Virus record (IMG/VR): IMGVR_UViG_3300014208_001436
Location: 1 to 42,717 of that record
Source of the DNA: a virus
Taxonomy: Duplodnaviria; Caudoviricetes
Length of the DNA stretch: 42,717 nt
Strand: one strand, 5' to 3'
The position numbers and the translations under genes are program-made. Shown here in pieces: positions 3,523 through 34,587 of this stretch (position 1 is its first letter; each line of letters begins with the position of its first letter). The notes below the pieces were generated by a model, which was not told the origin of the DNA, searched no databases, and worked only from the letters and a program-made list of their open reading frames with translations.

Positions 3523-3756
3523 ATGCCTACACATTCAGAAATGTTAAGTCTTGAGGGCCTGGGCGTTTACACAACTGCCCAGCTTTCAGAAGTCCTTGGA
3601 TATACCATTCAGCACACGCGATGGCTTATTCGAACGAATAGGCTGAATGCCATCAAAGTGGGAAGGGACTGGATTATTCAGCGATCTGATGCTGCCGCCT
3701 ATGTCGCTGCCAAAGAGCGCAATCAGGCAACTATAACGACTAAGAGAGGGACATGA
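3523..3756 (+). CDS. Excisionase-type (HTH_17/MerR-like) DNA-binding protein
   Basis: YTTAQLSEVLGYTIQHTRWLIRTNRLNAIKVGRDWII; AGGGA before ATG 3523; ATGA overlap with the methyltransferase. Confidence 0.75.
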   Translation: MPTHSEMLSLEGLGVYTTAQLSEVLGYTIQHTRWLIRTNRLNAIKVGRDWIIQRSDAAAYVAAKERNQATITTKRGT

Positions 3757-4718
3757 CTACAACTACCGTTCGTCCAATGCCTAAAATTCGGGTTAAACGA
3801 GAGGCCTTAATCACCAATCCTAGCCCTATTCCTAGTGTGGGAACTGCGAAAAATATTTTGCAGCAGAAAGATGAAAAAATTAAAGGCAAGGTTCATCCAA
3901 GAAATCCGTTGAATGATTTGACCTCAACAGAGTGGATTCCAGAAACCGTTTCTGTTTGGAATCAAAAAGGGCTTGGTGCAAGTCATGCGGAAGCCCAGAT
4001 TGAACGTCAGCACCCGGCACCGTTTTCGTTCACAGATGTTGCACGGCTGATTAGGTTTTTTACAAAGAAAGGGCAGATTGTTCTTGATCCCTTTGTTGGT
4101 GTGGGATCAACACTGAAGGCGTGTGCTCTTGAAAAACGCCAGGGGATTGGTTTTGAGTTAAATTCTCGATATGTCGACTTAGCAAAGAAGAGGCTTAGAA
4201 CTGAAGTTACGGATGAAATAGCGGTGAAACAACAGCGTGTCCTCAGGGGTGATGCTCGCAGGCTTGTGGCAGCCTTGCCTGAGAATAGTATTGATTTTGT
4301 AGTCACGAGTCCGCCCTATGCCGCGATTCTTCACAAAGAGGATCACAAGGTTAAGCAGGAGCGAACCGCTAAGGGGCTAGATACTCGTTATAGTGACAGT
4401 AAACTGGATTTTGGCAACATTAAGGACTATTCGACATTCCTGGGTGAGCTCGCTGAAATGCTTGGAGATTGTGCGAAGGCGCTCAAACCCAAAAAGTACA
4501 TGGCCATTATAGTTGGCGACTTCAGAGAAAAATCGAAATATGTGATGTTTCATGCTGACTTGGCCCATATGCTTGAGAAATATTCGCTGGGACTTCGTGG
4601 CATCACTGTGCTATATCAGAGGCACAAGCGGGTTTTTCCTTACGGTTATCCGTATGCTTATGTTCCGAATATGCACCATCAATTTATCCTAATATTGCAG
4701 AATGAAAAATCTGAATAA
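3753..4718 (+). CDS. DNA amino-methyltransferase (SPPY type, probably N4-cytosine)
   Basis: HPAPF, SAM-binding DPFVGVGST followed by catalytic VTSPPY. Confidence 0.88.
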   Translation: MTTTTVRPMPKIRVKREALITNPSPIPSVGTAKNILQQKDEKIKGKVHPRNPLNDLTSTEWIPETVSVWNQKGLGASHAEAQIERQHPAPFSFTDVARLIRFFTKKGQIVLDPFVGVGSTLKACALEKRQGIGFELNSRYVDLAKKRLRTEVTDEIAVKQQRVLRGDARRLVAALPENSIDFVVTSPPYAAILHKEDHKVKQERTAKGLDTRYSDSKLDFGNIKDYSTFLGELAEMLGDCAKALKPKKYMAIIVGDFREKSKYVMFHADLAHMLEKYSLGLRGITVLYQRHKRVFPYGYPYAYVPNMHHQFILILQNEKSE

Positions 4719-5505
4719 AACAATCCGTAGTGGTATAGTTGTCGGAGATTGTATCAAGGAGCTGCAGAAGCTTCCGGATGCATGTACTGCCCTAATTATT
4801 GCCGACCCGCCATATAATCTGAACAAAAACTTTGGGCCTTGGAAAGAGTCGGACCATCGGCATGAGTGGTTGGACTGGTCTAAGACCTGGCTCGCAGAGT
4901 GCAAGAGGGTATTGCGACCAGGTGGGAATATTTTTGTCTACGGTATCCACCATTACATTTGTTGGATTCAGTGTGCTCTGTATGAACTGGGGTTGGACTA
5001 TCGGCGGCTCATTATTTGGAATTATGAGAATGGTTTTGCAGGATATGTTCGCAGCCTATCTGCTCATTATGAGCCATTGCTATGGTTTTCAGCGGGATCG
5101 AATTATACGTTTCATCCAATACGGGAGCCGTACAAAAGTCAGGAACGTTTGAAGTATAAAATTACAAAGAACGGAAAATCATGGCAGCCGAATCCAGAGG
5201 GTAGGCTTGCTGGTGATATATGGCGATTCCCCACACTAGCGGGTAGGCGTTTTCGGGATGAGAAGGTTGCTCACCCTACGCAGAAACCACTCTCAATATC
5301 CTTTAGGATTGTGAAACACTTTTCTAATCCAGGGGATCTGGTGGTTGTTCCGTTTGCTGGCAGCGGAACTGAGTGTGTCGCAGCGAAATTATTACACAGG
5401 AAATATCTTGGATTTGAGCTGAATCCAACGTATGTGGATATTGCCAGAAAGCGTATTCAGACCGCAAGCCTGCCGCCAGTATTGGAAACTACTTCGCTGC
5501 GTTGA
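4702..5505 (+). CDS. DNA amino-methyltransferase, beta class (DPPY type, probably N6-adenine)
   Basis: IADPPYN, HPTQKP, then PFAGSGT. Confidence 0.9.
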   Translation: MKNLNKTIRSGIVVGDCIKELQKLPDACTALIIADPPYNLNKNFGPWKESDHRHEWLDWSKTWLAECKRVLRPGGNIFVYGIHHYICWIQCALYELGLDYRRLIIWNYENGFAGYVRSLSAHYEPLLWFSAGSNYTFHPIREPYKSQERLKYKITKNGKSWQPNPEGRLAGDIWRFPTLAGRRFRDEKVAHPTQKPLSISFRIVKHFSNPGDLVVVPFAGSGTECVAAKLLHRKYLGFELNPTYVDIARKRIQTASLPPVLETTSLR

Positions 5506-26518: not shown

Positions 26519-26935
26519 ATGACTCACAGTAATCAACGCGTACTTCTAAGTATCTTGCTCTGCATTGCGGCAATTATTGGGCTGTGTTATGTGTTTCAAA
26601 ACCAGACAACAATTATATATGCAAAGGCTTACGACAGCTACTTAGATTTATGGCGACTCATATGGATAATTCCATTTATGCTTCTCGGCTTGGCCATTCG
26701 GGCTTTTCTACGTCGTAGAGAGCCTGGACCTCCATGGGTGGCATATATGAAATACTTGTTTTATCTTTCCATCGCGTCTGCCATCTTGTTCGTTATGTGC
26801 CATTCATTTTTGAATCTTGGTAATTGGCTCTACTATCCTGTTATAGCTTTAGGAGCAGTAATATTTGCTTTACCTTCCGGGTTGCCCTCCAAAATGGGCG
26901 CTTTCTTTCATAAATTCTATGGGCTCGACAGTTAG
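26519..26935 (+). CDS. Integral membrane protein (moron-like)
   Basis: About four hydrophobic segments; AT-rich; opposite strand to the head operon; TGTTAAAAT extended -10 at 26492-26500. Confidence 0.65.
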   Translation: MTHSNQRVLLSILLCIAAIIGLCYVFQNQTTIIYAKAYDSYLDLWRLIWIIPFMLLGLAIRAFLRRREPGPPWVAYMKYLFYLSIASAILFVMCHSFLNLGNWLYYPVIALGAVIFALPSGLPSKMGAFFHKFYGLDS

Positions 26936-28891
26936 TATCGATTTGCCCAAATAAAGATTCAGTGGTTTAAGAGAAAAATTAGACACCAGTAACTCATACT
27001 TGTGCCGTGCTCCCATGTGATGCACTCCCGTCCATAGCGTCTTGATTCGGTAAGTCTTGAAGCCCTTGAACAGCCCAACCTTTTCCAGCTCATAGCTCAA
27101 GAGGAATCTGCCCTTGATGCTTTTGAGTGTCGGTACTAAATCTTCCTCCTTGAAGAATTTTGAGCCATGCTTGCCGCCTTCCTTGGGCCAGTGGAGGGGA
27201 TAAGGCGGGTCCAGGTAAAAGAAGGTGTTATCCGAGTCGTACTCCTTTATCACTTCTTTCCAGTCCCATGAATGAAGTCTTGTGCTCTTGAGTCGCTCCT
27301 GTATTTCCGGCAGATGGTCGACTAGCCTTATCGGCATCCCTTCGCCGCTTGAGCCATGATTCCGGACTCCTTCCATAACGTCGGTTCGTCCCCAGTATGT
27401 GGCCTTGTTTAGATACGCTATTCGGTAGAAGCGTTCTCGCGGGCTTTTGGGGACGGACTCGAACACCTTCTTCGCATGCGCCTTGGAGATAATCCAGTGC
27501 TGCTTTTTAAGCCAGGCTAAATTCTCCGGCGACATGGTTTTGATGAAGCGGTAGGCAAACATCAGGTCGGAGTTGATGTCGTTTATCACCTCCGTGTCAG
27601 ATTGCTTCTTGTGAAAGAACACCTGAGCGCCGCCACAGAATCCCTCAACGAAGGTCTTATGCTCCGGGATGAGCGAGATTATTTTCTTATATAGCCGGTA
27701 CTTGCCGCCAGGACTTTTGAATGCACCGCGTATCTTCTCCAATGGATCAACCAAATGGGGGAAAATCTCAGACATTTGGTTTATTGACTCCGGCAATACA
27801 TCCTTTTCTATGTAGAGATGCACCGGCTTCAGCGGGAAATTGGAAGCCATCATTTCCGTAACCCACTCCTTGTTCCCACCGGGGCCCCGCATCTGGTTCC
27901 GGCGCTTCACGATATAGACGTGATATCCCTTGAAAACCTTGGCGTGCTCCGATGGGTATGAGACGATCCATTTCGCCTTGAGGCCTTTAACGGCTTTCAG
28001 GAATTCTTCTTCCTTGAAGCCGAAATCGAAGAGGTTGAACTTGTCCGGATATGGCGGGTCCATATAGAAGAACGTGTCTGGGCTGTCATACTCCTTCAGT
28101 ACTTGCAGATAGTCTTTATTGCTGACCGCTACATTGCGCAGGCGCTCCTGGGCGCGTTCTACTGTGTTCGGAAAGTCTATTTTTACGCCCTCATTAGCGG
28201 GATTGAATGAGCCGCCGCGCATTTTGCCGTAAGAGGATCGTGTGAGATAGAACGCCTTGTAGAACCTATCCCGGTCTGTTTCCGGCTTCATGGCTTTAAG
28301 CCGTTCGTGGGTCTCCCTGAGGATTGTCCACTCCCGCTTTGCGAGAGCGTTCGTGTCCTCCTGGCTGTGGTCGCGGATGAATTTATGCATGAAGGCGATC
28401 TCCGCATCGCGGTCGTTTAACGCTTCCTGCGGCGACGGGTCTTTGGCGTAGAGAACGGCTGCCCCGCCCGCGAACGGTTCGACATAGGTGCGGTGGTGGG
28501 GGATATACGAGGCGATGCGGTGAGCCAGGAAGCGCTTGCCGCCGTAGGAGCCGAAGGCCTGCCGCACCCCCTTCTCGGCATCCTCCTCAGCTTCCACGTC
28601 GGTTTCGTCAGCTATGATAGCCAGGGTTTGTTCCTGCAAATTGTCCTGTATCGTATGCTGAAAGCCCCGGCGGATCATCTCTTGGATGACGATGACGTGC
28701 AGAACCAGAATATCCTGCGCGTCCCAGTTCGTCTTTTCATCAAACACCTTGTGTCCCGCCTGCAGCATGGCCCATGCCCTGTGCAGAATGAAATCCATCG
28801 CCAGCAGGTCTTGGTCCGGTAGTTTGGCCGGGTCCGAGCGGAACAATTGTCCGTAGTCCGCAAAATCAATCTTCATTGTCTCAGTGGTCAT
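26870..28891 (-). CDS. Tandem double D12-class (Dam-like) DNA adenine methyltransferase with extra N-terminal domain
   Basis: Two complete motif sets: YGGK/EPFAGG/LND/MDPPY and PGGK/EGFCGG/IND/LDPPY; ATG 28891 overlaps portal stop, GGAGGA SD. Confidence 0.9.
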   Translation of the reverse strand: MTTETMKIDFADYGQLFRSDPAKLPDQDLLAMDFILHRAWAMLQAGHKVFDEKTNWDAQDILVLHVIVIQEMIRRGFQHTIQDNLQEQTLAIIADETDVEAEEDAEKGVRQAFGSYGGKRFLAHRIASYIPHHRTYVEPFAGGAAVLYAKDPSPQEALNDRDAEIAFMHKFIRDHSQEDTNALAKREWTILRETHERLKAMKPETDRDRFYKAFYLTRSSYGKMRGGSFNPANEGVKIDFPNTVERAQERLRNVAVSNKDYLQVLKEYDSPDTFFYMDPPYPDKFNLFDFGFKEEEFLKAVKGLKAKWIVSYPSEHAKVFKGYHVYIVKRRNQMRGPGGNKEWVTEMMASNFPLKPVHLYIEKDVLPESINQMSEIFPHLVDPLEKIRGAFKSPGGKYRLYKKIISLIPEHKTFVEGFCGGAQVFFHKKQSDTEVINDINSDLMFAYRFIKTMSPENLAWLKKQHWIISKAHAKKVFESVPKSPRERFYRIAYLNKATYWGRTDVMEGVRNHGSSGEGMPIRLVDHLPEIQERLKSTRLHSWDWKEVIKEYDSDNTFFYLDPPYPLHWPKEGGKHGSKFFKEEDLVPTLKSIKGRFLLSYELEKVGLFKGFKTYRIKTLWTGVHHMGARHKYELLVSNFSLKPLNLYLGKSILTVEPIEFMKESAHFGGQPGR

Positions 28892-30849
28892 TTTTCCTCC
28901 AGTACTGTAACCCATGTGCATCGGCAATTTGGATGCGCGGGCAGCATGTCCTGTGCATCATCCAGCGCCATAATCTTGCCGAGCTTCTCTCCGGGCGCAA
29001 CTTCAGCCAAGTCGGCGCATTCTTTACAGGCGTCCGAGGCCAGTAGCCATTGGACGTTTTCAACGCCAGCCTGCTTGAGCGCGTCCAGATTCCCGGCGTT
29101 ATAGGCCCGGTTGGCCTCCGTGCGGGCGATAACCTCGGCCAGCACATTCTTGCCGATTACCCGGCTGCTGGCGGCTCTGATGATATTTCCATCGGCATCC
29201 AGAACCGGCTTTATCGTGATAGTCTGGCTGCCGACCCAGGTATCAATGCGCTTCATAAGTTGCGGGATGGTCTCATTTGCCCTGATGCCGGCCGACAGTT
29301 CCTCCCGGAGCCGGTCCACCATGCCGCGCGTCAGGTCATCGGCCAGCGCTGAGGCCTCGGTTTTGAGTTTCTTTTGTGCCGCATGGCTTAAGTCCTCAAT
29401 GCCCTCAAGCCCGGCCCGCTGTGCCGATAGTTCCAGCCCCTTATATGCGGATTCCAGGGCGAACCGTTCTATGGTTCTGGCGACCTTGTCCTTGTCCACC
29501 AGCTGGAGCAGGACCTCCAGGTCGCCTTCGTGTTTCAGGCCCGGCAGTTTCGCCTTCACCACGTCGCCTATCTTGCGGAAGATGGCCCTTACCGCGTCAA
29601 CAAACCTGTTCTCAAGGGCAACTACGGCACGGGTGGCGTTGGCGATAGTCTCGCGCGGGTTCAGCGATTTCTGCATCTCCGGCATTCGTGGCGCTACAAT
29701 CCTGCGGACCTCATCCGGGCTGAAAACGCCGTTTTGCAGGTAGATGTTAAATATCTCGGCCTGGTCTTTTTCGTCTATCGCCCGCTTATTGAACTGGAAC
29801 GACCAGTCCGAGATGCCGAAGCCCTGCCGGATGACGTGCTTTGTGATTTTCTCCGCCAGCCGCATCTGGAAGGGCGAAATAGTCTCATCGTAAAATGTCG
29901 CCGTCTGCTGCTCGCCGCTGCCGCTGCCGATATTGCCGGTCTCGATTATAGAGACCTTGCTCGGCGGCACACCATAAACGGCCAGGATCTCGTTCCGGGT
30001 GAACTCCCTGAGTTCCAGAAACTCCATGTCCTTCTGGGTCGTGCTTATCTGTTTAAACTCGATGTCGCCCTCCAGCACGAGGTCTGAGTGCGCCATATCC
30101 GGATTCTTGGCGCGGGCCGCCATGTAGTCGCGGTTGCGGTCCACCTGCTCCGGTGTCGCGTCTTTCATGATGAACGCGCCCCGGATTTTCGCGCCGTTCA
30201 GGAAGAACGCCCGGTTGTATATCTGGGCGTATTTGTCCACCGTCACTGGCAATATCAGCGAAGCCAGCGGGGAAAGGCCGTATAGGGTAGCCCCCTTGGT
30301 TCCCAGTTTGAAGTGAATAACCTCTCTGGTTTTGAATTCGACCTTTCCCGGCTGGTTCCGCGGGACCTGGATGTAACCTGTAATGGAACCGTGCTCGTCT
30401 GCTTTTACCCGTATGCTGGTCGCGTCGAGGTTCCATAACTCGCGTGGTTTTCCGTCCGGGCCATAAACCACTTCAAGAAACGCATTCCCGAACACATAAA
30501 CGTCGCGAGCTATATCGTCCAGTATCTCCAGCAGGGTATCGTTGGGGTTGCAGTTGGCAAAGAACTCCTGCAGGGTTTCAGCATTCTTTGGGTCGGCATT
30601 AACCTTTGCGGGTGCCAGCGAATAGCCTCGGGCAGTTACAGCCTTGCAGATAACTCCGACTACGGCGCGGACCCAGGAGGTCTGCTCGTACATCTGGTTG
30701 AAAATCTCGAAGTCTATATCCGGCAGGATGCCGTCGCTGGTTGTTGGCAGGCCGGTGACATACGAGATTATCTGCTTGGACGACTTCTCGACCTCGGCAC
30801 GGATCACGCCGCCGAATAGTGCGTTTATCAATCGTTCTCTTATGCCCAT
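28888..30849 (-). CDS. Portal protein fused to a MuF/SPP1 gp7-like minor head domain
   Basis: FGNAFLE, EVIHFK, YGLSPL, DMEFLE, ILAVYGVPP; C-terminal IARTEANRAYN...C..C...PAHPNCRC. Confidence 0.92.
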   Translation of the reverse strand: MGIRERLINALFGGVIRAEVEKSSKQIISYVTGLPTTSDGILPDIDFEIFNQMYEQTSWVRAVVGVICKAVTARGYSLAPAKVNADPKNAETLQEFFANCNPNDTLLEILDDIARDVYVFGNAFLEVVYGPDGKPRELWNLDATSIRVKADEHGSITGYIQVPRNQPGKVEFKTREVIHFKLGTKGATLYGLSPLASLILPVTVDKYAQIYNRAFFLNGAKIRGAFIMKDATPEQVDRNRDYMAARAKNPDMAHSDLVLEGDIEFKQISTTQKDMEFLELREFTRNEILAVYGVPPSKVSIIETGNIGSGSGEQQTATFYDETISPFQMRLAEKITKHVIRQGFGISDWSFQFNKRAIDEKDQAEIFNIYLQNGVFSPDEVRRIVAPRMPEMQKSLNPRETIANATRAVVALENRFVDAVRAIFRKIGDVVKAKLPGLKHEGDLEVLLQLVDKDKVARTIERFALESAYKGLELSAQRAGLEGIEDLSHAAQKKLKTEASALADDLTRGMVDRLREELSAGIRANETIPQLMKRIDTWVGSQTITIKPVLDADGNIIRAASSRVIGKNVLAEVIARTEANRAYNAGNLDALKQAGVENVQWLLASDACKECADLAEVAPGEKLGKIMALDDAQDMLPAHPNCRCTWVTVLEEK

Positions 30850-31613
30850 AGCGTGTCCCCCGTTGAAATCCCAGCGGAGTGCCGGAACCGCCCCGACCCC
30901 TTGAGGATGGGAACCTCACGGCTCTCTCTTGAGCCCTCCTCCGCATCTATCCACCACCGCAAATCGCCATTCTTCGGATATTTGCTGCGCCAGTTAAATG
31001 GCGACTCCTTGATTAAGGCCTTTCGCAGTTTATGCGAGCACATGAATTTACAGTAGCGGAACTGGAAGCCTGATATTTTGGTCAGGCCGATACCACGGGT
31101 GAATTCGTTGGCTCTTGTCCCGTAGCGGGTAATCAAAAGCCGGGGATGCACTACCTCGCCATCTCCCGTGCAGTAAAACTGGCTCTTAATAAAACCACCG
31201 TATAGCCAGTTGGCCGATTGGTAGACATAGCCGGGTTTGCCCCGGAGGCCGTCAGCCCAGCTGAATAGCACATGGACATTCGGAAAATCCTGCCTGATAT
31301 GTTGGCAGCACTGCTTCAGGAACATGCTCTCGGTATTCCGGGGCATCTCGTCCAGGACGCAGAACCTGTTAAGTTCCAGATAATTGTTCACGCTCAGGGA
31401 CGGGAACAGCTTTCGGATGGTGTGCATGGGCCGGGTGCCGAAGCCCCAGAGCGCAACGCCCACCAGTTTCTCGTCTTTGAACAGGCCGTAGGTTATCTTC
31501 GTGATGGGCGGGCAGATGACGGCATAATGATGTGCCGCTACAAATTCCCGGCCCGTCACGTTACTGACGGGTCTTATAAACAAGCCGCTATCGTCCGCAT
31601 TAGATATAGTCAT
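30840..31613 (-). CDS. Mom-family (GNAT-fold) DNA adenine modification protein
   Basis: FVAAHHY, LVGVALWG, LELNRFCV...PRNTESMFL, SWADG..GKPGYVYQSANW, terminal YPK; start uncertain (31613 or 31643). Confidence 0.8.
   Translation of the reverse strand: MTISNADDSGLFIRPVSNVTGREFVAAHHYAVICPPITKITYGLFKDEKLVGVALWGFGTRPMHTIRKLFPSLSVNNYLELNRFCVLDEMPRNTESMFLKQCCQHIRQDFPNVHVLFSWADGLRGKPGYVYQSANWLYGGFIKSQFYCTGDGEVVHPRLLITRYGTRANEFTRGIGLTKISGFQFRYCKFMCSHKLRKALIKESPFNWRSKYPKNGDLRWWIDAEEGSRESREVPILKGSGRFRHSAGISTGDTLWA
30873..30944 (-). ncRNA. tRNA-Gly(CCC)-like cloverleaf embedded in the 3' end of the mom-like ORF
   Basis: GCGGAGG-AG-GGCTC AAGAGA GAGCC-G-TGAGG TTCCCAT CCTCA-AGGG-GTCGG GGCGGTT CCGGC-ACTCCGC-T; four stems at tRNA spacing, no encoded CCA. 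Confidence 0.7.
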
Positions 31614-33018
31614 TGTATCTGCTCTGGCCGAAATCAGAGACATATCTGATGTTCGGCGGCACCTTCTTTTTTCGCAGGACCTCCATCGCCAGCCAGAGCG
31701 CGTCCAGCAGGTCGTCATTACCCAAGGGGAAATGCAGGAGTTCCTCTTCCAGCTCCGGCAAGCTTTCGGGCAGCCGGAGAGCCCTGTTTTCAAACAGTAG
31801 CGCCAGCCCTCTGATACGCCGTTGTTTGTCGCCCTGAGTAGTGATGCCTTTTATCGGCAGTCGGGAGGTCTCCTCATCCACTCGCAACACCTGCAGCATA
31901 GACTGCTGATATGCGTTGGCTTCGATGCCCACCTCGGTGGGCTCATAGAACTTGCAGAGCCATTTGATGGTTTTTACCTGCTCCGGGAACTGGATGCTGT
32001 CCTTATGCGCCGCCAGCACATAGGCGTCTTTGTCGCCCTTTGGGATTCCCAGGACCACATAGGCGAACTTCGAATGGGACTCAGCACTGCCGGCCGCAAG
32101 GTCCACGCCTATGTAAATATTCATGTCCTTCGGCTTTTCCGCATAGCGGCAGGCGGTGAGCCATTCAATTTTGAAATCCGAGCCTTCCTGACCGGCGACA
32201 TCGTTGAGCATCTGCGTACGGTAGGCCTGGCTGCCCATATTTGCCTTTATCTGGTCCAGCGCTTCCGGTGACCATTTTTCAGGGAATAAGATTTGGCGTT
32301 TACCGGCTTCATCAGTCCATTCTGCACGCTGTTCGATTACGTGCCAGTTCTTGAAGCCGGGATCGGACATAATATGCCCGGCCAAGTCGTCTTTATGCCA
32401 GCGGGTCATGCAGACTATCAGCTGGCCGGACGGCTCCAGAATGGGCATGACAGTATTCTGGAACCACGAGATTATCTTCTTGCGCTGGTTCGGCGTCTGG
32501 GAGTTCTTCTCGCTGTGTGGGTCATCTATCACTATCAGGTCCGCATGCTGGCTTACGATGGTACCCAGTGCGCCCGCAGCCGATATGCTGGGCTCCTTGA
32601 GCACCTTGTCGCGGGGGATAAGAATCTTCTCAGCCGTCCACATGCTGCTCAGGGTGTCCCAGTGGCCGTAAAGCTCCTGGAACTTTTCGCTGGAGATATG
32701 CGCCTTGATGGTCTGGAGGATATCTTTGGCGTTGCCGAGCACTTCGTTAAGGATGGAAATGCGCAGGTTATGGTCCTGCGTAAGCCGCCAGAGAGAATAC
32801 CCCACGGTGACTGCCGAGGTCTTGAGATGCCCCCGGGGGCTCAAAAGCAGGATATAGCGATGATCCAGCAGTTCTTTATACCAGCGCAGGTGCAGCTTGC
32901 TGATATGGTGATATCCCAGCACGTCCCGCGCAAAGGCAAAGAGGTCGAACAGCTTCCGCTGGAGGCTCTTGGCGTCCAGTTCTGGGAGGGGGCCCTGATT
33001 AAGTATCCGGTTGGTCAT
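31600..33018 (-). CDS. Terminase large subunit
   Basis: Walker A SPRGHLKTS, Walker B LIVIDDP, MTRWHKDDL, nuclease YIGVDLA...GIEANAYQ...NDDLLDAL. Confidence 0.93.
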   Translation of the reverse strand: MTNRILNQGPLPELDAKSLQRKLFDLFAFARDVLGYHHISKLHLRWYKELLDHRYILLLSPRGHLKTSAVTVGYSLWRLTQDHNLRISILNEVLGNAKDILQTIKAHISSEKFQELYGHWDTLSSMWTAEKILIPRDKVLKEPSISAAGALGTIVSQHADLIVIDDPHSEKNSQTPNQRKKIISWFQNTVMPILEPSGQLIVCMTRWHKDDLAGHIMSDPGFKNWHVIEQRAEWTDEAGKRQILFPEKWSPEALDQIKANMGSQAYRTQMLNDVAGQEGSDFKIEWLTACRYAEKPKDMNIYIGVDLAAGSAESHSKFAYVVLGIPKGDKDAYVLAAHKDSIQFPEQVKTIKWLCKFYEPTEVGIEANAYQQSMLQVLRVDEETSRLPIKGITTQGDKQRRIRGLALLFENRALRLPESLPELEEELLHFPLGNDDLLDALWLAMEVLRKKKVPPNIRYVSDFGQSRYNDYI

Positions 33019-33160
33019 GAGAGTTGTTTTGCCGCAAAAAAATAATTTCGGTCAAAATCAGACTGTCGCAAAATCTGTAAAGGGGGAGCGTACCGCGTTC
33101 CGGCCTCAAAATTTACGCTATTTTTTACCTGTCTGCTCATAGTCGTTTCTCGTCGGTAAA

Positions 33161-33189
33161 ACCTGACATAATCGTGCATTATGTCAGGT
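33161..33189. repeat. Perfect inverted repeat, dif/Xer-site-like
   Basis: ACCTGACATAA-TCGTGCA-TTATGTCAGGT. Confidence 0.7.
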
Positions 33190-33212
33190 GAATCCCGCGC
33201 TTTCTCGCGGAT

Positions 33213-33743
33213 TCACTCGCCATTCTGCTCCCCTGGCCGCGCCTCGGGATCGTTTTCCAAAACGTCGGCTTTGGCCTCGCCTAGGCCAGCTTCTATCACC
33301 CGCTCAGCCGGGGCAGATTGAACCACTTCCCCTTTGATGAAGCGGGTAAACTGCATGATAGTCTCGTCGGTAAAATTTATAAGCGGCCCACGGTTCCCGG
33401 TCCCGGAGGTGGTCATAAGTGCTTTCAGCTTCACTGCGGACTCCAGCATCGCCGCGACCTCCTTTGGTGCAGCGTCTGATGCTTTTTGTATCCCCTGACG
33501 TAGATTGGCCTCAACGAACCGCCAGAACAGACGCTCGCGCTGTACGGCTTTTTTATCCTTGATGGTTTTCTTTGCCTGCTCGGTAACCTGCGATGGAGCG
33601 CGTGCGCTGTCTGAGCAGCGTAAGATGGACGTGCGCGGCCAGCCCAACTCTTTCGATAATGCTGAGGGGCTTTCACCTGCGGCCAGCCGTGCCGCAACTT
33701 GGTTTATTTCTTCCTGGGGATACTTCGGTTTTCGTCCTTTCAC
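33213..33743 (-). CDS. Terminase small subunit (putative, N-terminal HTH)
   Basis: KYPQEEINQVAARLAAGESPSALSKELGWPRTSI HTH; upstream of TerL; GTG 33743 with AGGAGA SD and GTGA overlap. Confidence 0.7.
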   Translation of the reverse strand: MKGRKPKYPQEEINQVAARLAAGESPSALSKELGWPRTSILRCSDSARAPSQVTEQAKKTIKDKKAVQRERLFWRFVEANLRQGIQKASDAAPKEVAAMLESAVKLKALMTTSGTGNRGPLINFTDETIMQFTRFIKGEVVQSAPAERVIEAGLGEAKADVLENDPEARPGEQNGE

Positions 33744-33925
33744 TGGTCTATCTCCTGTGCCCAATCCTCTTTCAGTTCCTTGCGCACCTTCCGCTGGTAA
33801 TCGCGGTGGTACTTCTGCTCATAATCCCTGCGCCAGGCGCGTTTGCACTTATGGTGATAGCGCTGGTTAGAGTATTCCGGCGTAAACGGCTGCTTGCAGA
33901 ATCGGCAAATCTTCTCTTTATACAT
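33740..33925 (-). CDS. Small Cys/His zinc-binding-like protein
   Basis: CRFCKQPF...RYHHKC; stop overlaps TerS start. Confidence 0.5.
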   Translation of the reverse strand: MYKEKICRFCKQPFTPEYSNQRYHHKCKRAWRRDYEQKYHRDYQRKVRKELKEDWAQEIDQ

Positions 33926-33973
33926 GATCGTTGGTTTTCGCGTGAAAGTCCATAAAACTGTTTAAACAGTTTG
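33924..33973 (-). promoter_or_regulatory. Second copy of the 26-bp operator/promoter element
   Basis: 33948-33973 is identical to 26420-26445; TGGACT-17 nt-GATCAT follows. Confidence 0.6.
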
Positions 33974-34243
33974 TATGTTCTCCGACGGCAATACACGCAC
34001 TCTGCCGCCTATATGTTTCTTGACCAGGTGGATATTATTGAGCGCCATCAGGTCATCGACCAGCGGCTCTATGAGGGCTATCTCTTCCAGCAGATAGTCC
34101 ACGAGGCCGGGAAATCTCTCTTTTGCCGCCTTGACCTGTGCGTTGTTTGACACGACCAGTACCCGCTCGCCTTTCAGCCACGGCAACATGACTGGCGACC
34201 AGCCTTTCCGGACAATGACTTGGTGAATGAGCGGTGTCAGCAT
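33962..34243 (-). CDS. Hypothetical protein, 93 aa
   Basis: Overlaps resolvase stop; operon context. Confidence 0.6.
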   Translation of the reverse strand: MLTPLIHQVIVRKGWSPVMLPWLKGERVLVVSNNAQVKAAKERFPGLVDYLLEEIALIEPLVDDLMALNNIHLVKKHIGGRVRVLPSENIQTV

Positions 34244-34587
34244 GCCGCCGCCTTTACATCCAGAACTACGCTCGTGCCGTCACTCTTGTGAATGCGGTAA
34301 ACTCCGGCTCTGAGATGCTCCCAGACCTCTGCCTGCGGCCATACCCCGAAGGTCCTGTTGCGCCTTACCGCTACCGCGCCGGACGTAACCTGGATGAAGC
34401 GCACCTCGCTCGGTTGCTTGAGGGCGACAATATCAAACGCGCCGAACAGATCACGCGCGCAGAATACTATGCCCCGCCCGGGTTGCCAGCCCGGCTTGCC
34501 GAAGCTGCGTTCCACCAGATACCCCTGGCTCTTGAGGTAATCCGCGACTTTCTTCTCATGCATATTGCCTTTTGAACGATTGCTCAT
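34237..34587 (-). CDS. Holliday junction resolvase-like PD-(D/E)xK nuclease
   Basis: KGNMHEKKVADYLKSQGY...FDIVAL...FIQV; GGAGGA SD. Confidence 0.75.
   Translation of the reverse strand: MSNRSKGNMHEKKVADYLKSQGYLVERSFGKPGWQPGRGIVFCARDLFGAFDIVALKQPSEVRFIQVTSGAVAVRRNRTFGVWPQAEVWEHLRAGVYRIHKSDGTSVVLDVKAAAC

Follow-up and report, generated by a model that had tools for sequence, protein, structure and literature searches.

A tRNA-Gly-like RNA within the 3′ end of a phage mom-like gene, under selection at the RNA level and a candidate glycyl donor for DNA modification

The mom-like gene of a tailed phage carries a tRNA-Gly-like RNA within its 3′ end. The phage is known from the IMG/VR record IMGVR_UViG_3300014208_001436 (Duplodnaviria; Caudoviricetes), which was analysed over its whole length of 42,717 bases and is called the window below. 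Its minus strand encodes a homologue of Mom, the DNA-modifying enzyme of phage Mu, and the last part of this gene is read in frame through a 72-nucleotide (nt) cloverleaf. Our analysis supports the view that this is a real RNA of tRNA-Gly type, under selection at the RNA level and tied to Mom. We propose, from sequence, that the element would be cut from the mom mRNA, charged by glycyl-tRNA synthetase (GlyRS) and kept off the ribosome to serve as a glycyl donor, a role that we consider probable while leaving considerable room for doubt. The gene and the parts of the element are as follows:

30840..31613, minus strand: mom-like gene, 257 amino acids (aa), homologue of a GNAT-fold DNA adenine glycyltransferase
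30972..30980, minus strand: YPK motif (from the sequence), end of the Mom core, followed by the C-terminal tail
30873..30944, minus strand: tRNA-Gly-like RNA, 72 nt, also mom codons 224-247 in frame (from fold and covariation)
30938..30944, minus strand: 5′ strand of the acceptor stem (G1, C2, G3; G7 mismatches A66)
30920..30935, minus strand: D arm with a 5-bp stem and a 6-nt loop, AAGAGA, holding A18 and G19; position 8 is A, not U
30902..30918, minus strand: anticodon arm with the loop TT-CCC-AT
30881..30897, minus strand: T arm with the loop GGCGGTT (G54, G55, C56, G58) and the pairs G49-C65, U50.G64 and C51-G63
30873..30880, minus strand: 3′ strand of the acceptor stem and discriminator U73 (30873); GGG comes next and CCA is not encoded

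An earlier, sequence-only reading of this DNA had placed the cloverleaf at 30944-30873, and every stem and loop was found there, with the open reading frame (ORF) reading through it in frame. The element begins at codon 224, 36 nt past the start of YPK. Its acceptor stem is GCGGAG/CTCCGC plus one G.A mismatch, its variable loop has 4 nt, its T stem holds one G.U, and its anticodon CCC (30911-30909) doubles as an in-frame Pro codon. The copy departs from a canonical tRNA by A8, A18, a GGC T loop and the unpaired G7.A66, and it retains U33, A37 and an open 7-nt anticodon loop. The D loop had been described as lacking GG, which is half correct, as G18 is replaced by A and G19 is kept. The minimum-energy fold of the 72-mer is the cloverleaf, yet 49 of 200 shuffled sequences fold equally well (z -0.61); the single window sequence folds no better than chance and alone proves nothing.

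The cloverleaf is nonetheless confirmed as real, and it is the relatives, rather than a single-sequence fold, that establish it. A weight-matrix scan of the window and of 219 loci gathered by protein homology yielded 90 distinct ungapped 72-mers above threshold. Because these loci had been ranked by tblastn, which is biased to an in-frame tail, viral contigs were also searched at the DNA level, with a pattern that fixed neither the anticodon nor most of the stem bases. This search gave 86 matches, each with 20-22 of the 22 pairs, and the anticodon was NCC in 86 of 86 (CCC in 70, ACC in nine and TCC in seven). A looser pattern without C34 gave 24 matches with 21-22 pairs, eight of them new, all with ACC or TCC. 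Many matches are near-copies, and the two pattern searches together hold 64 distinct sequences. For the covariation analysis, 63 copies with a pairwise identity of at most 68/72 were taken from 104. Paired cells made up 96.1% in these copies, whereas shuffles gave 72.1% and slid controls 34-47%, and covariation reached 0.614 against 0.131 in shuffles and at most 0.102 in slid controls; kinship among the copies is covered by the slid control and not by the shuffle control, and the changes comprise many pair types. Two-sided changes occur in 15 of the 22 pairs, with covariation spanning all four helices, and RNAalifold recovers the same cloverleaf and adds a 32-38 pair. Covarying NCC cloverleafs beside mom homologues, proposed as a check when the element was first noticed, are thus present. 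The 14 top pairs by mutual information are 13 stem pairs and 32-38, followed by two elbow contacts, 18-55 (alternating A.G and G.U) and 54-58 (alternating G.G and U.A). As these contacts covary and G19/C56 is invariant, the elbow appears to have been rebuilt, not lost. Paired changes are also seen in 120 homologous protein tails (AEE..SA versus AGE..PA).

All 113 distinct copies carry G1-C72, C2-G71, C35, C36 and G19/C56, and 108 carry U73; several of these positions had been set by the search patterns, whereas 90 copies were obtained by protein homology alone. The bacterial glycine identity set comprises G1-C72, C2-G71, U73, C35 and C36 (PMC9976931, cited, like the other papers given by PMC number, from the part of its text that was available), and the window copy has the set complete, as had been claimed for it. 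Position 34 varies (CCC in 88, ACC in 15, TCC in 10 and GCC never). A8 is found in all 113 copies, U33 in 54, a paired 32-38 in 99 and G51-C63 in one. The family is best read as a derived tRNA-Gly, since the next-best matches of model R1 identified in host metagenome-assembled genomes (MAGs) are canonical tRNA-Gly genes (34-47 bits) and the copies with a TTCGA T loop are called as tRNA-Gly. ARAGORN calls three of the 113 copies at its default and 29 at a relaxed threshold, all as Gly; the three retain TTCGA and G18G19, and two of them pass the Rfam tRNA threshold. That standard tRNA finders would miss the window copy had been anticipated, and ARAGORN indeed reported 0 tRNAs in the whole window and Rfam no tRNA match at E up to 10 within 29500-33000. 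The covariance model scores the window element at 93.6 bits by construction, the window copy being included in the model. Of 146 embedded contexts, 92 encode CCA, which the window copy lacks. CCA is likewise not encoded in nine of 11 canonical tRNA-Gly matches of related host MAGs, so its absence here is normal. Five copies (L199, L100, L102, L276 and L324) have A73 in place of U73. A73 is the discriminator of archaeal tRNA-Gly, and a link of these copies to archaeal hosts was considered; one of the five, L199, belongs to an archaeal MAG. A sequence resembling a tRNA, with UCA in its loop, and transfer-messenger RNA (tmRNA)-like pieces were seen just upstream of an element-free mom (L081:1146-1215, 1464-1540).

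The assignment of the gene to Mom also held. The 257-aa ORF matches Pfam PF25680 (Mom) with E 4.1e-42 (144.6 bits versus a curated cut-off of 27.1) and PHROG 1384 with E 3.8e-38. A profile of the protein matches Mu Mom (PDB 8bv8) with E 1.6e-31, and Foldseek puts 8bv8 at ranks 1-2 (best E 2.2e-17; the following match has E 1e-5). By profile alignment, H29, Y30, R83, S96, D121 and Y131 correspond to Mu Mom H58, Y59, R111, S124, D149 and Y159. The residue roles in Mu Mom, including that of the essential R151, are those given in PMC13219725; R151 aligns with L123 of the window protein, and the adjoining R124 is invariant in A2.

The element is strongly associated with this enzyme. Mom was found in 85 of the 86 records matched by the free-anticodon pattern (by tblastn in the locus for 75, by profile for five and elsewhere on the contig for five), and the single Mom-less match lies on a 10.9-kb fragment. 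Among the eight new matches of the looser pattern, seven have Mom and one starts just past an in-frame YPK at the contig edge. By comparison, the protein was matched in 270 of 50,697 GenBank phage records. A Pfam-only search of 401 genomes sampled from the phylum of G022 gave 14 strong Mom loci, 13 with the RNA directly after the domain: five of the 72-nt type (two matching phage loci already in the set), one intermediate and seven of a 66-67-nt form, which scores 18-21 bits by the model and has a cloverleaf fold, ACC, U73 and a UGC T loop. Short forms of 66-68 nt, with the 8-9 linker shortened or missing, a short D arm, a 6-nt anticodon loop, ACC or TCC and a UGC T loop, directly follow the YP motif of other mom genes in L441, L442, L444-L446, L454 (2083-2148 or mirror), L437, L388:4736-4801 and L402:4774-4841. 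A blastn search of cultured-phage GenBank records with three queries did not find the element. The Planctomycetota MAG G017 holds five copies on five contigs. A conserved motif past the stop of L203-L208 was considered as a tRNA and rejected, being terminator-like and giving no model match.

The copies are not confined to the 3′ end of mom. Besides the embedded copies, some overlap the mom start (L240, L279), one lies 10 nt upstream (L325), one 1.8 kb upstream (L404), and others are free-standing. In L240 (1201-1272) and L279, the mom ORF opens inside the element with no ATG, and a 10-codon ORF runs from just before G1 to a TGA, with which a mom-frame TTG overlaps; a coupled start, in a Dehalococcoides-like layout, is possible. 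Five copies (L235, L236, L266, L267 and L280) have no Mom ORF overlapping them or within 1.2 kb. Their contigs, which are large phage fragments, hold one to three Mom genes elsewhere, in tandem in two. Inspection by eye gave TTGACT/TATATT promoter-like sites ahead of the free-standing copies of L236, L266 and L280, and an ATPase-like ORF after those of L235, L236 and L266.

Where it is embedded, the stretch carries two codes. In 57 non-redundant genes of the window clade, the commonest base at fourfold sites averages 0.80 in the element against 0.47 in the domain, and four of nine such sites in the element reach at least 0.95 against none of 44 in the domain. At the Pro of the anticodon, CCC is used in 55 of 55, compared with 40-60% in eight other Pro columns. 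The frame is likewise under constraint. A YP-type motif lies upstream in 148 of 156 distinct contexts, always in frame 0 and with spacers of 12-174 nt; the other eight have none in the remaining frames either. In 146 contexts, stops within the element number four in frame 0 versus 14 and 39 in the other frames. The L333 copy is embedded in another frame. Conservation of the peptide in place of the pairing, named at the outset as a point that would speak against an RNA, is contradicted by the covariation and the fourfold sites. The peptide read from the element aligns, with no gap, to a W-x6-G-x7-P motif at the end of sister proteins that lack the element, and one such homologue (L202) folds its tail as a hairpin with an AlphaFold predicted local distance difference test (pLDDT) score of 91-97.

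Two oddities of the element fit this dual coding. Among all triplets, CCC alone fits both NCC, as a Gly anticodon, and CCN, as a Pro codon, and it prevails only where the element overlies the W-x6-G-x7-P motif. G7.A66 occurs in 93 of 113 copies, and T7 would create TAA or TAG in codon 3 of the element; in L220, L226 and L231, mom indeed terminates at nt 7-9 of the element. The L286 copy, which is not in the mom frame, has T7-A66 and TCC and is close to L070 (67/72 identical; 5/72 sites differ). The CCC anticodon and G7 would thus follow from the same bases coding the Mom tail. The argument is limited by the presence of G7.A66 in copies upstream of mom as well (L325, L404). In L071, L193 and L439, the C run of the anticodon loop has lost one base, with a frameshift of the mom tail as the result, and L168 has a stop directly after the anticodon Pro; these variants are either real or homopolymer errors.

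The neighbours of mom in the window are:

31600..33018, minus strand: terminase large subunit (terL), upstream of mom, overlapping the mom start by 14 nt (Pfam, PHROG)
30850..30872, minus strand: 23-nt trailer with a Shine-Dalgarno-like GGGGGA (30861-30856) ahead of the portal ATG (from the sequence)
28888..30849, minus strand: portal gene, downstream of mom, with a fused Mu-F-like minor head domain (Pfam, PHROG)

The end of mom and the start of portal overlap by 10 nt, and GGGGGA is a putative ribosome-binding site for portal. The placement between terminase and portal, stressed in the sequence-only reading, is a local feature; terL adjoins four and portal five of 56 non-redundant loci, and the arrangement is lineage-specific. 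A promoter and terminator scan of 28500-34500 gave none above shuffles and none on the minus strand. By Pfam, the record also encodes an integrase, head and tail genes and three further DNA methylase genes. Directly after the portal gene, a protein of 685 aa with a pair of D12 Dam-like methylase domains is encoded (26870-28927, minus), and two N6/N4 methylase genes lie at 3753-4718 and 4702-5505 on the plus strand. With these predicted genes, more than one kind of adenine or cytosine modification may be combined on the phage DNA. As the closest relatives of the window mom (79-86%) sit in Elusimicrobia MAGs, the phage probably infects a relative of Elusimicrobium.

How such an RNA could serve Mom is suggested by the chemistry of the Mu enzyme, which moves glycine from Gly-tRNAGly-CCA to the N6 of adenine and rejects Gly-tRNAAla (PMC13219725); the donor chemistry put forward in the sequence-only reading agrees with this. 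Structure, selection on the RNA, the glycine identity set and the link to Mom were observed in the data above, and each biochemical step that follows is one that we infer. The element would be a tRNA-Gly descendant retained as the private glycine carrier of the Mom enzyme. On a late transcript whose order, judged from the overlapping ORFs, would be terL-mom-portal, the cloverleaf would fold while ribosomes do not melt the mRNA. Host RNase P and a 3′ nuclease would excise the RNA, to which CCA would then be added, and the remaining message would be split into a non-stop mom part and a portal part with 23 nt of leader. Host GlyRS would charge the RNA through G1-C72, C2-G71, U73, C35 and C36. In Staphylococcus aureus, EF-Tu sequesters proteogenic Gly-tRNA from FmhB and the non-proteogenic (NP) tRNAs escape (PMC7826273), and the T-stem pairs 49-65, 50-64 and 51-63 set the affinity for EF-Tu (PMC11122139, PMC7609411). 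The window RNA may evade EF-Tu or the ribosome through its rebuilt core and elbow (A8, the 5-bp D stem, A18.G55 and G54.G58), with the closed anticodon loop of most relatives possibly aiding this avoidance. Late in infection, Mom would then move the glycine to adenine N6 of the phage DNA before packaging and so protect it from restriction; this transfer and protection are established for Mu Mom only.

A wider version of this proposal, put forward tentatively and with more doubt than belief, is that the 72 bases code both a C-terminal hairpin and the charged co-substrate of the enzyme, that each transcript would yield either Mom or donor and so balance itself, and that mobile elements would have rebuilt tRNA-Gly in this way several times, as the 72-nt form, the 66-nt short-D form and the Dehalococcoides 5′ form, and would so define a class of viral, non-translational tRNAs that has been overlooked.

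Several observations weigh against the donor role. Mu Mom accepts all three Escherichia coli tRNA-Gly isoacceptors (PMC13219725), and a private donor is therefore not required. U33 and the open 7-nt anticodon loop are kept in the window copy, and C51-G63 is present in the canonical tRNA-Gly of G010; the 51-63 pair was accordingly rejected as a diagnostic EF-Tu antideterminant. Excising the RNA would truncate the mom mRNA. A look-up of data sets for the relative L185:2600-3500 listed no RNA run, and four assembled sequencing runs probably derive from DNA. The window cloverleaf is stable with up to 30 nt of flank, and with 60-100 nt another fold wins, the acceptor pairing falling to 0.00-0.18 and the D arm alone persisting, so that translation or co-transcriptional folding would decide; all four helices are kept with flanks of +/-60 nt in 31 of 57 relatives. 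No element was found at 27 distant Mom loci (0/27) or in Melnitz, and in another Mom subfamily it is present in nine of 80 loci and missing from 71. The copies of L286 and L433 have no mom body upstream. The former (L286 / L337:490-560) ends a 197-aa gene in a virion region with no Pfam match, and the latter (L433:324-395) ends a Toprim-like ORF fused to a mom tail, arrangements that reflect either recombination or misassembly. As to the dual code, AlphaFold gives the tail of the window protein a pLDDT below 50 at 225-236 and 241-258, and so does not support a folded C-terminal hairpin in this protein. CCC is fixed in one clade (SH-aLRT, a likelihood-based branch support, 99 in a quick tree), which makes the Pro-codon link a single origin; this tree has label errors, with L333 and L074 given as element-free despite their copies, and was used for two statements only, that the window clade forms a single group and that the element is patchily distributed outside it.

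Other explanations were weighed against these data. The element could be a cis-acting tRNA mimic or processing signal, at which cleavage by RNase P/Z or binding by Mom or GlyRS would limit a toxic enzyme and split the late operon, with no glycine donated. Its 5′ end lies in the mom frame in 148 of 148 YP-motif contexts, even where the ORF ends at nt 7-9 of the element, a putative ribosome-binding site for portal follows immediately on its 3′ side, and a competing fold exists in long contexts, all of which suit such a signal. The same either/or model has been proposed for selC in selB (PMC8124441), and thrS-type mimics are known (PMC9976931). We find this explanation unlikely on its own, as free-standing copies far from mom are unable to act on mom in cis, and the acceptor end, the discriminator and CCA (92/146 embedded) are conserved as for aminoacylation; a cis role and a donor role can, however, coexist. 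Descent from tRNA-Gly, the three copies with TTCGA and G18G19, the U33 and A37 of the window copy and the fact that Mu Mom is served by any charged tRNA-Gly would also agree with an ordinary, ribosome-active tRNA-Gly that replaces Gly-tRNA drained by Mom or resists tRNA-cutting defences of the host. Such a decoding role is improbable given A8 in all copies, the pairing of 32-38 in 99 of 113, U33 in only 54, the absence of GCC and the short forms with their 6-nt anticodon loop and no 8-9 linker; moreover, 14 of the 23 Gly codons of the window mom are GGC, which CCC cannot read.

We regard as very unlikely that the RNA is a decoy or sensor, directed at tRNA-targeting toxins or nucleases or at GlyRS/T-box control, in a mom-linked counter-defence kit. 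GNAT toxins do target charged tRNA (PMC13219725) and the L286 and L433 copies lie away from mom, but a decoy gives no reason for siting at mom ends in several architectures or for the invariable glycine. That the stretch has no RNA function at all, being conserved for its peptide tail, left over from an att site or a tRNA gene in decay, is hardly credible. The single-sequence z of -0.61 and the gapless alignment of the tail to the W-x6-G-x7-P hairpin of element-free homologues would allow it; against this stand compensatory changes in all helices that alter amino acids, frozen synonymous sites, copies with stops in the mom frame and the regained T7-A66 and TCC of L286 off that frame. An attachment-site origin was rejected separately, as the element has its full length, covaries and lies within the late operon.

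The use of Gly-tRNA by Mom as a donor to DNA was solved only lately, and the authors of PMC13219725 point out a possible cost of taking the donor from the pool that the host uses for translation. An answer to that cost is offered by a conserved, Mom-linked RNA of tRNA-Gly type that tRNA finders do not see. Dedicated non-proteogenic tRNAs were reported in 2020 for staphylococci only (PMC7826273). If the glycyl-donor role is correct, it would extend such tRNAs to viruses, with DNA as the target, give a function to the pseudo-tRNA described in Dehalococcoides in 2011, and provide a clear case of a tRNA and a protein made from the same bases with measurable trade-offs (G7, CCC).

The literature searched, which covered few subscription journals, contained no phage-encoded tRNA-like RNA linked to Mom as its donor; a tRNA-Gly-like locus in mom has a printed precedent, and the donor link is new within that literature. 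The precedent is the 76-bp tRNA-Gly-like pseudo-tRNA in a mom homologue of 16 Dehalococcoides ssrA islands (McMurdie et al. 2011, PMC3146451), which lies in the first 150 bp of mom and has the anticodon DCC; the available text proposes no function for it and reports the same type in a deep-sea fosmid. Both systems place a tRNA-Gly-like cloverleaf with an NCC anticodon inside the mom ORF of a mobile element, and the 5-nt anticodon loop of Dehalococcoides recurs in most relatives of the window element. They differ in that the window copy sits at the 3′ end, has CCC and lies in a phage late operon, rather than in the 5′ part with DCC in an ssrA island; among the relatives, 25 of 113 copies have ACC or TCC, and L240 and L279 overlap the mom start. 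The likeness is drawn from the published description, not from sequence, and the paper predates the glycyl-tRNA chemistry.

Mu Mom itself (PF25680, 8bv8) shares with the window protein the GNAT fold, six residue equivalents and the YPK motif. The two are about 27% identical, the tail of the window Mom is also an RNA, and Mu Mom uses host tRNA-Gly. The searched text of PMC13219725 mentions no phage-encoded donor, and the active homologues A and B described there may belong to the window clade.

The sequence-only reading had likened the element to the staphylococcal non-proteogenic tRNAs, a likeness that failed at the level of lineage. What is shared with NP1-NP3 tRNA-Gly of S. aureus, the donors for FmhB, FemA and FemB (PMC7826273), is the private-donor logic for a GNAT transferase and an altered T loop; an extra anticodon-stem pair is common to the NP tRNAs and most relatives of the window element. 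The NP tRNAs have UCC, a UGC or UGU T loop and the pairs A49-U65/U50-A64/A51-U63, and are chromosomal and restricted to staphylococci, none of which applies to the window copy. It instead has CCC and a GGC T loop, TGC loops being found in a few relatives and in the short form. G51-C63 occurs in one of the 113 copies, but the window T stem reads G-C/U.G/C-G, and C51-G63 recurs in the canonical tRNA-Gly of G010.

A close parallel in layout comes from Alphaproteobacteria, where selC (tRNA-Sec) is nested in selB at its 3′ end (Mukai 2021, PMC8124441), an in-frame tRNA that forms the C-terminal extension of the protein that uses it. There, as in the window mom, the stop overlaps the next start, and either/or expression was predicted for selB-selC. 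The partners are different, with a canonical, ribosome-bound tRNA-Sec and a translation factor in the one case and a deformed RNA of glycine identity and a DNA-modifying enzyme in the other.

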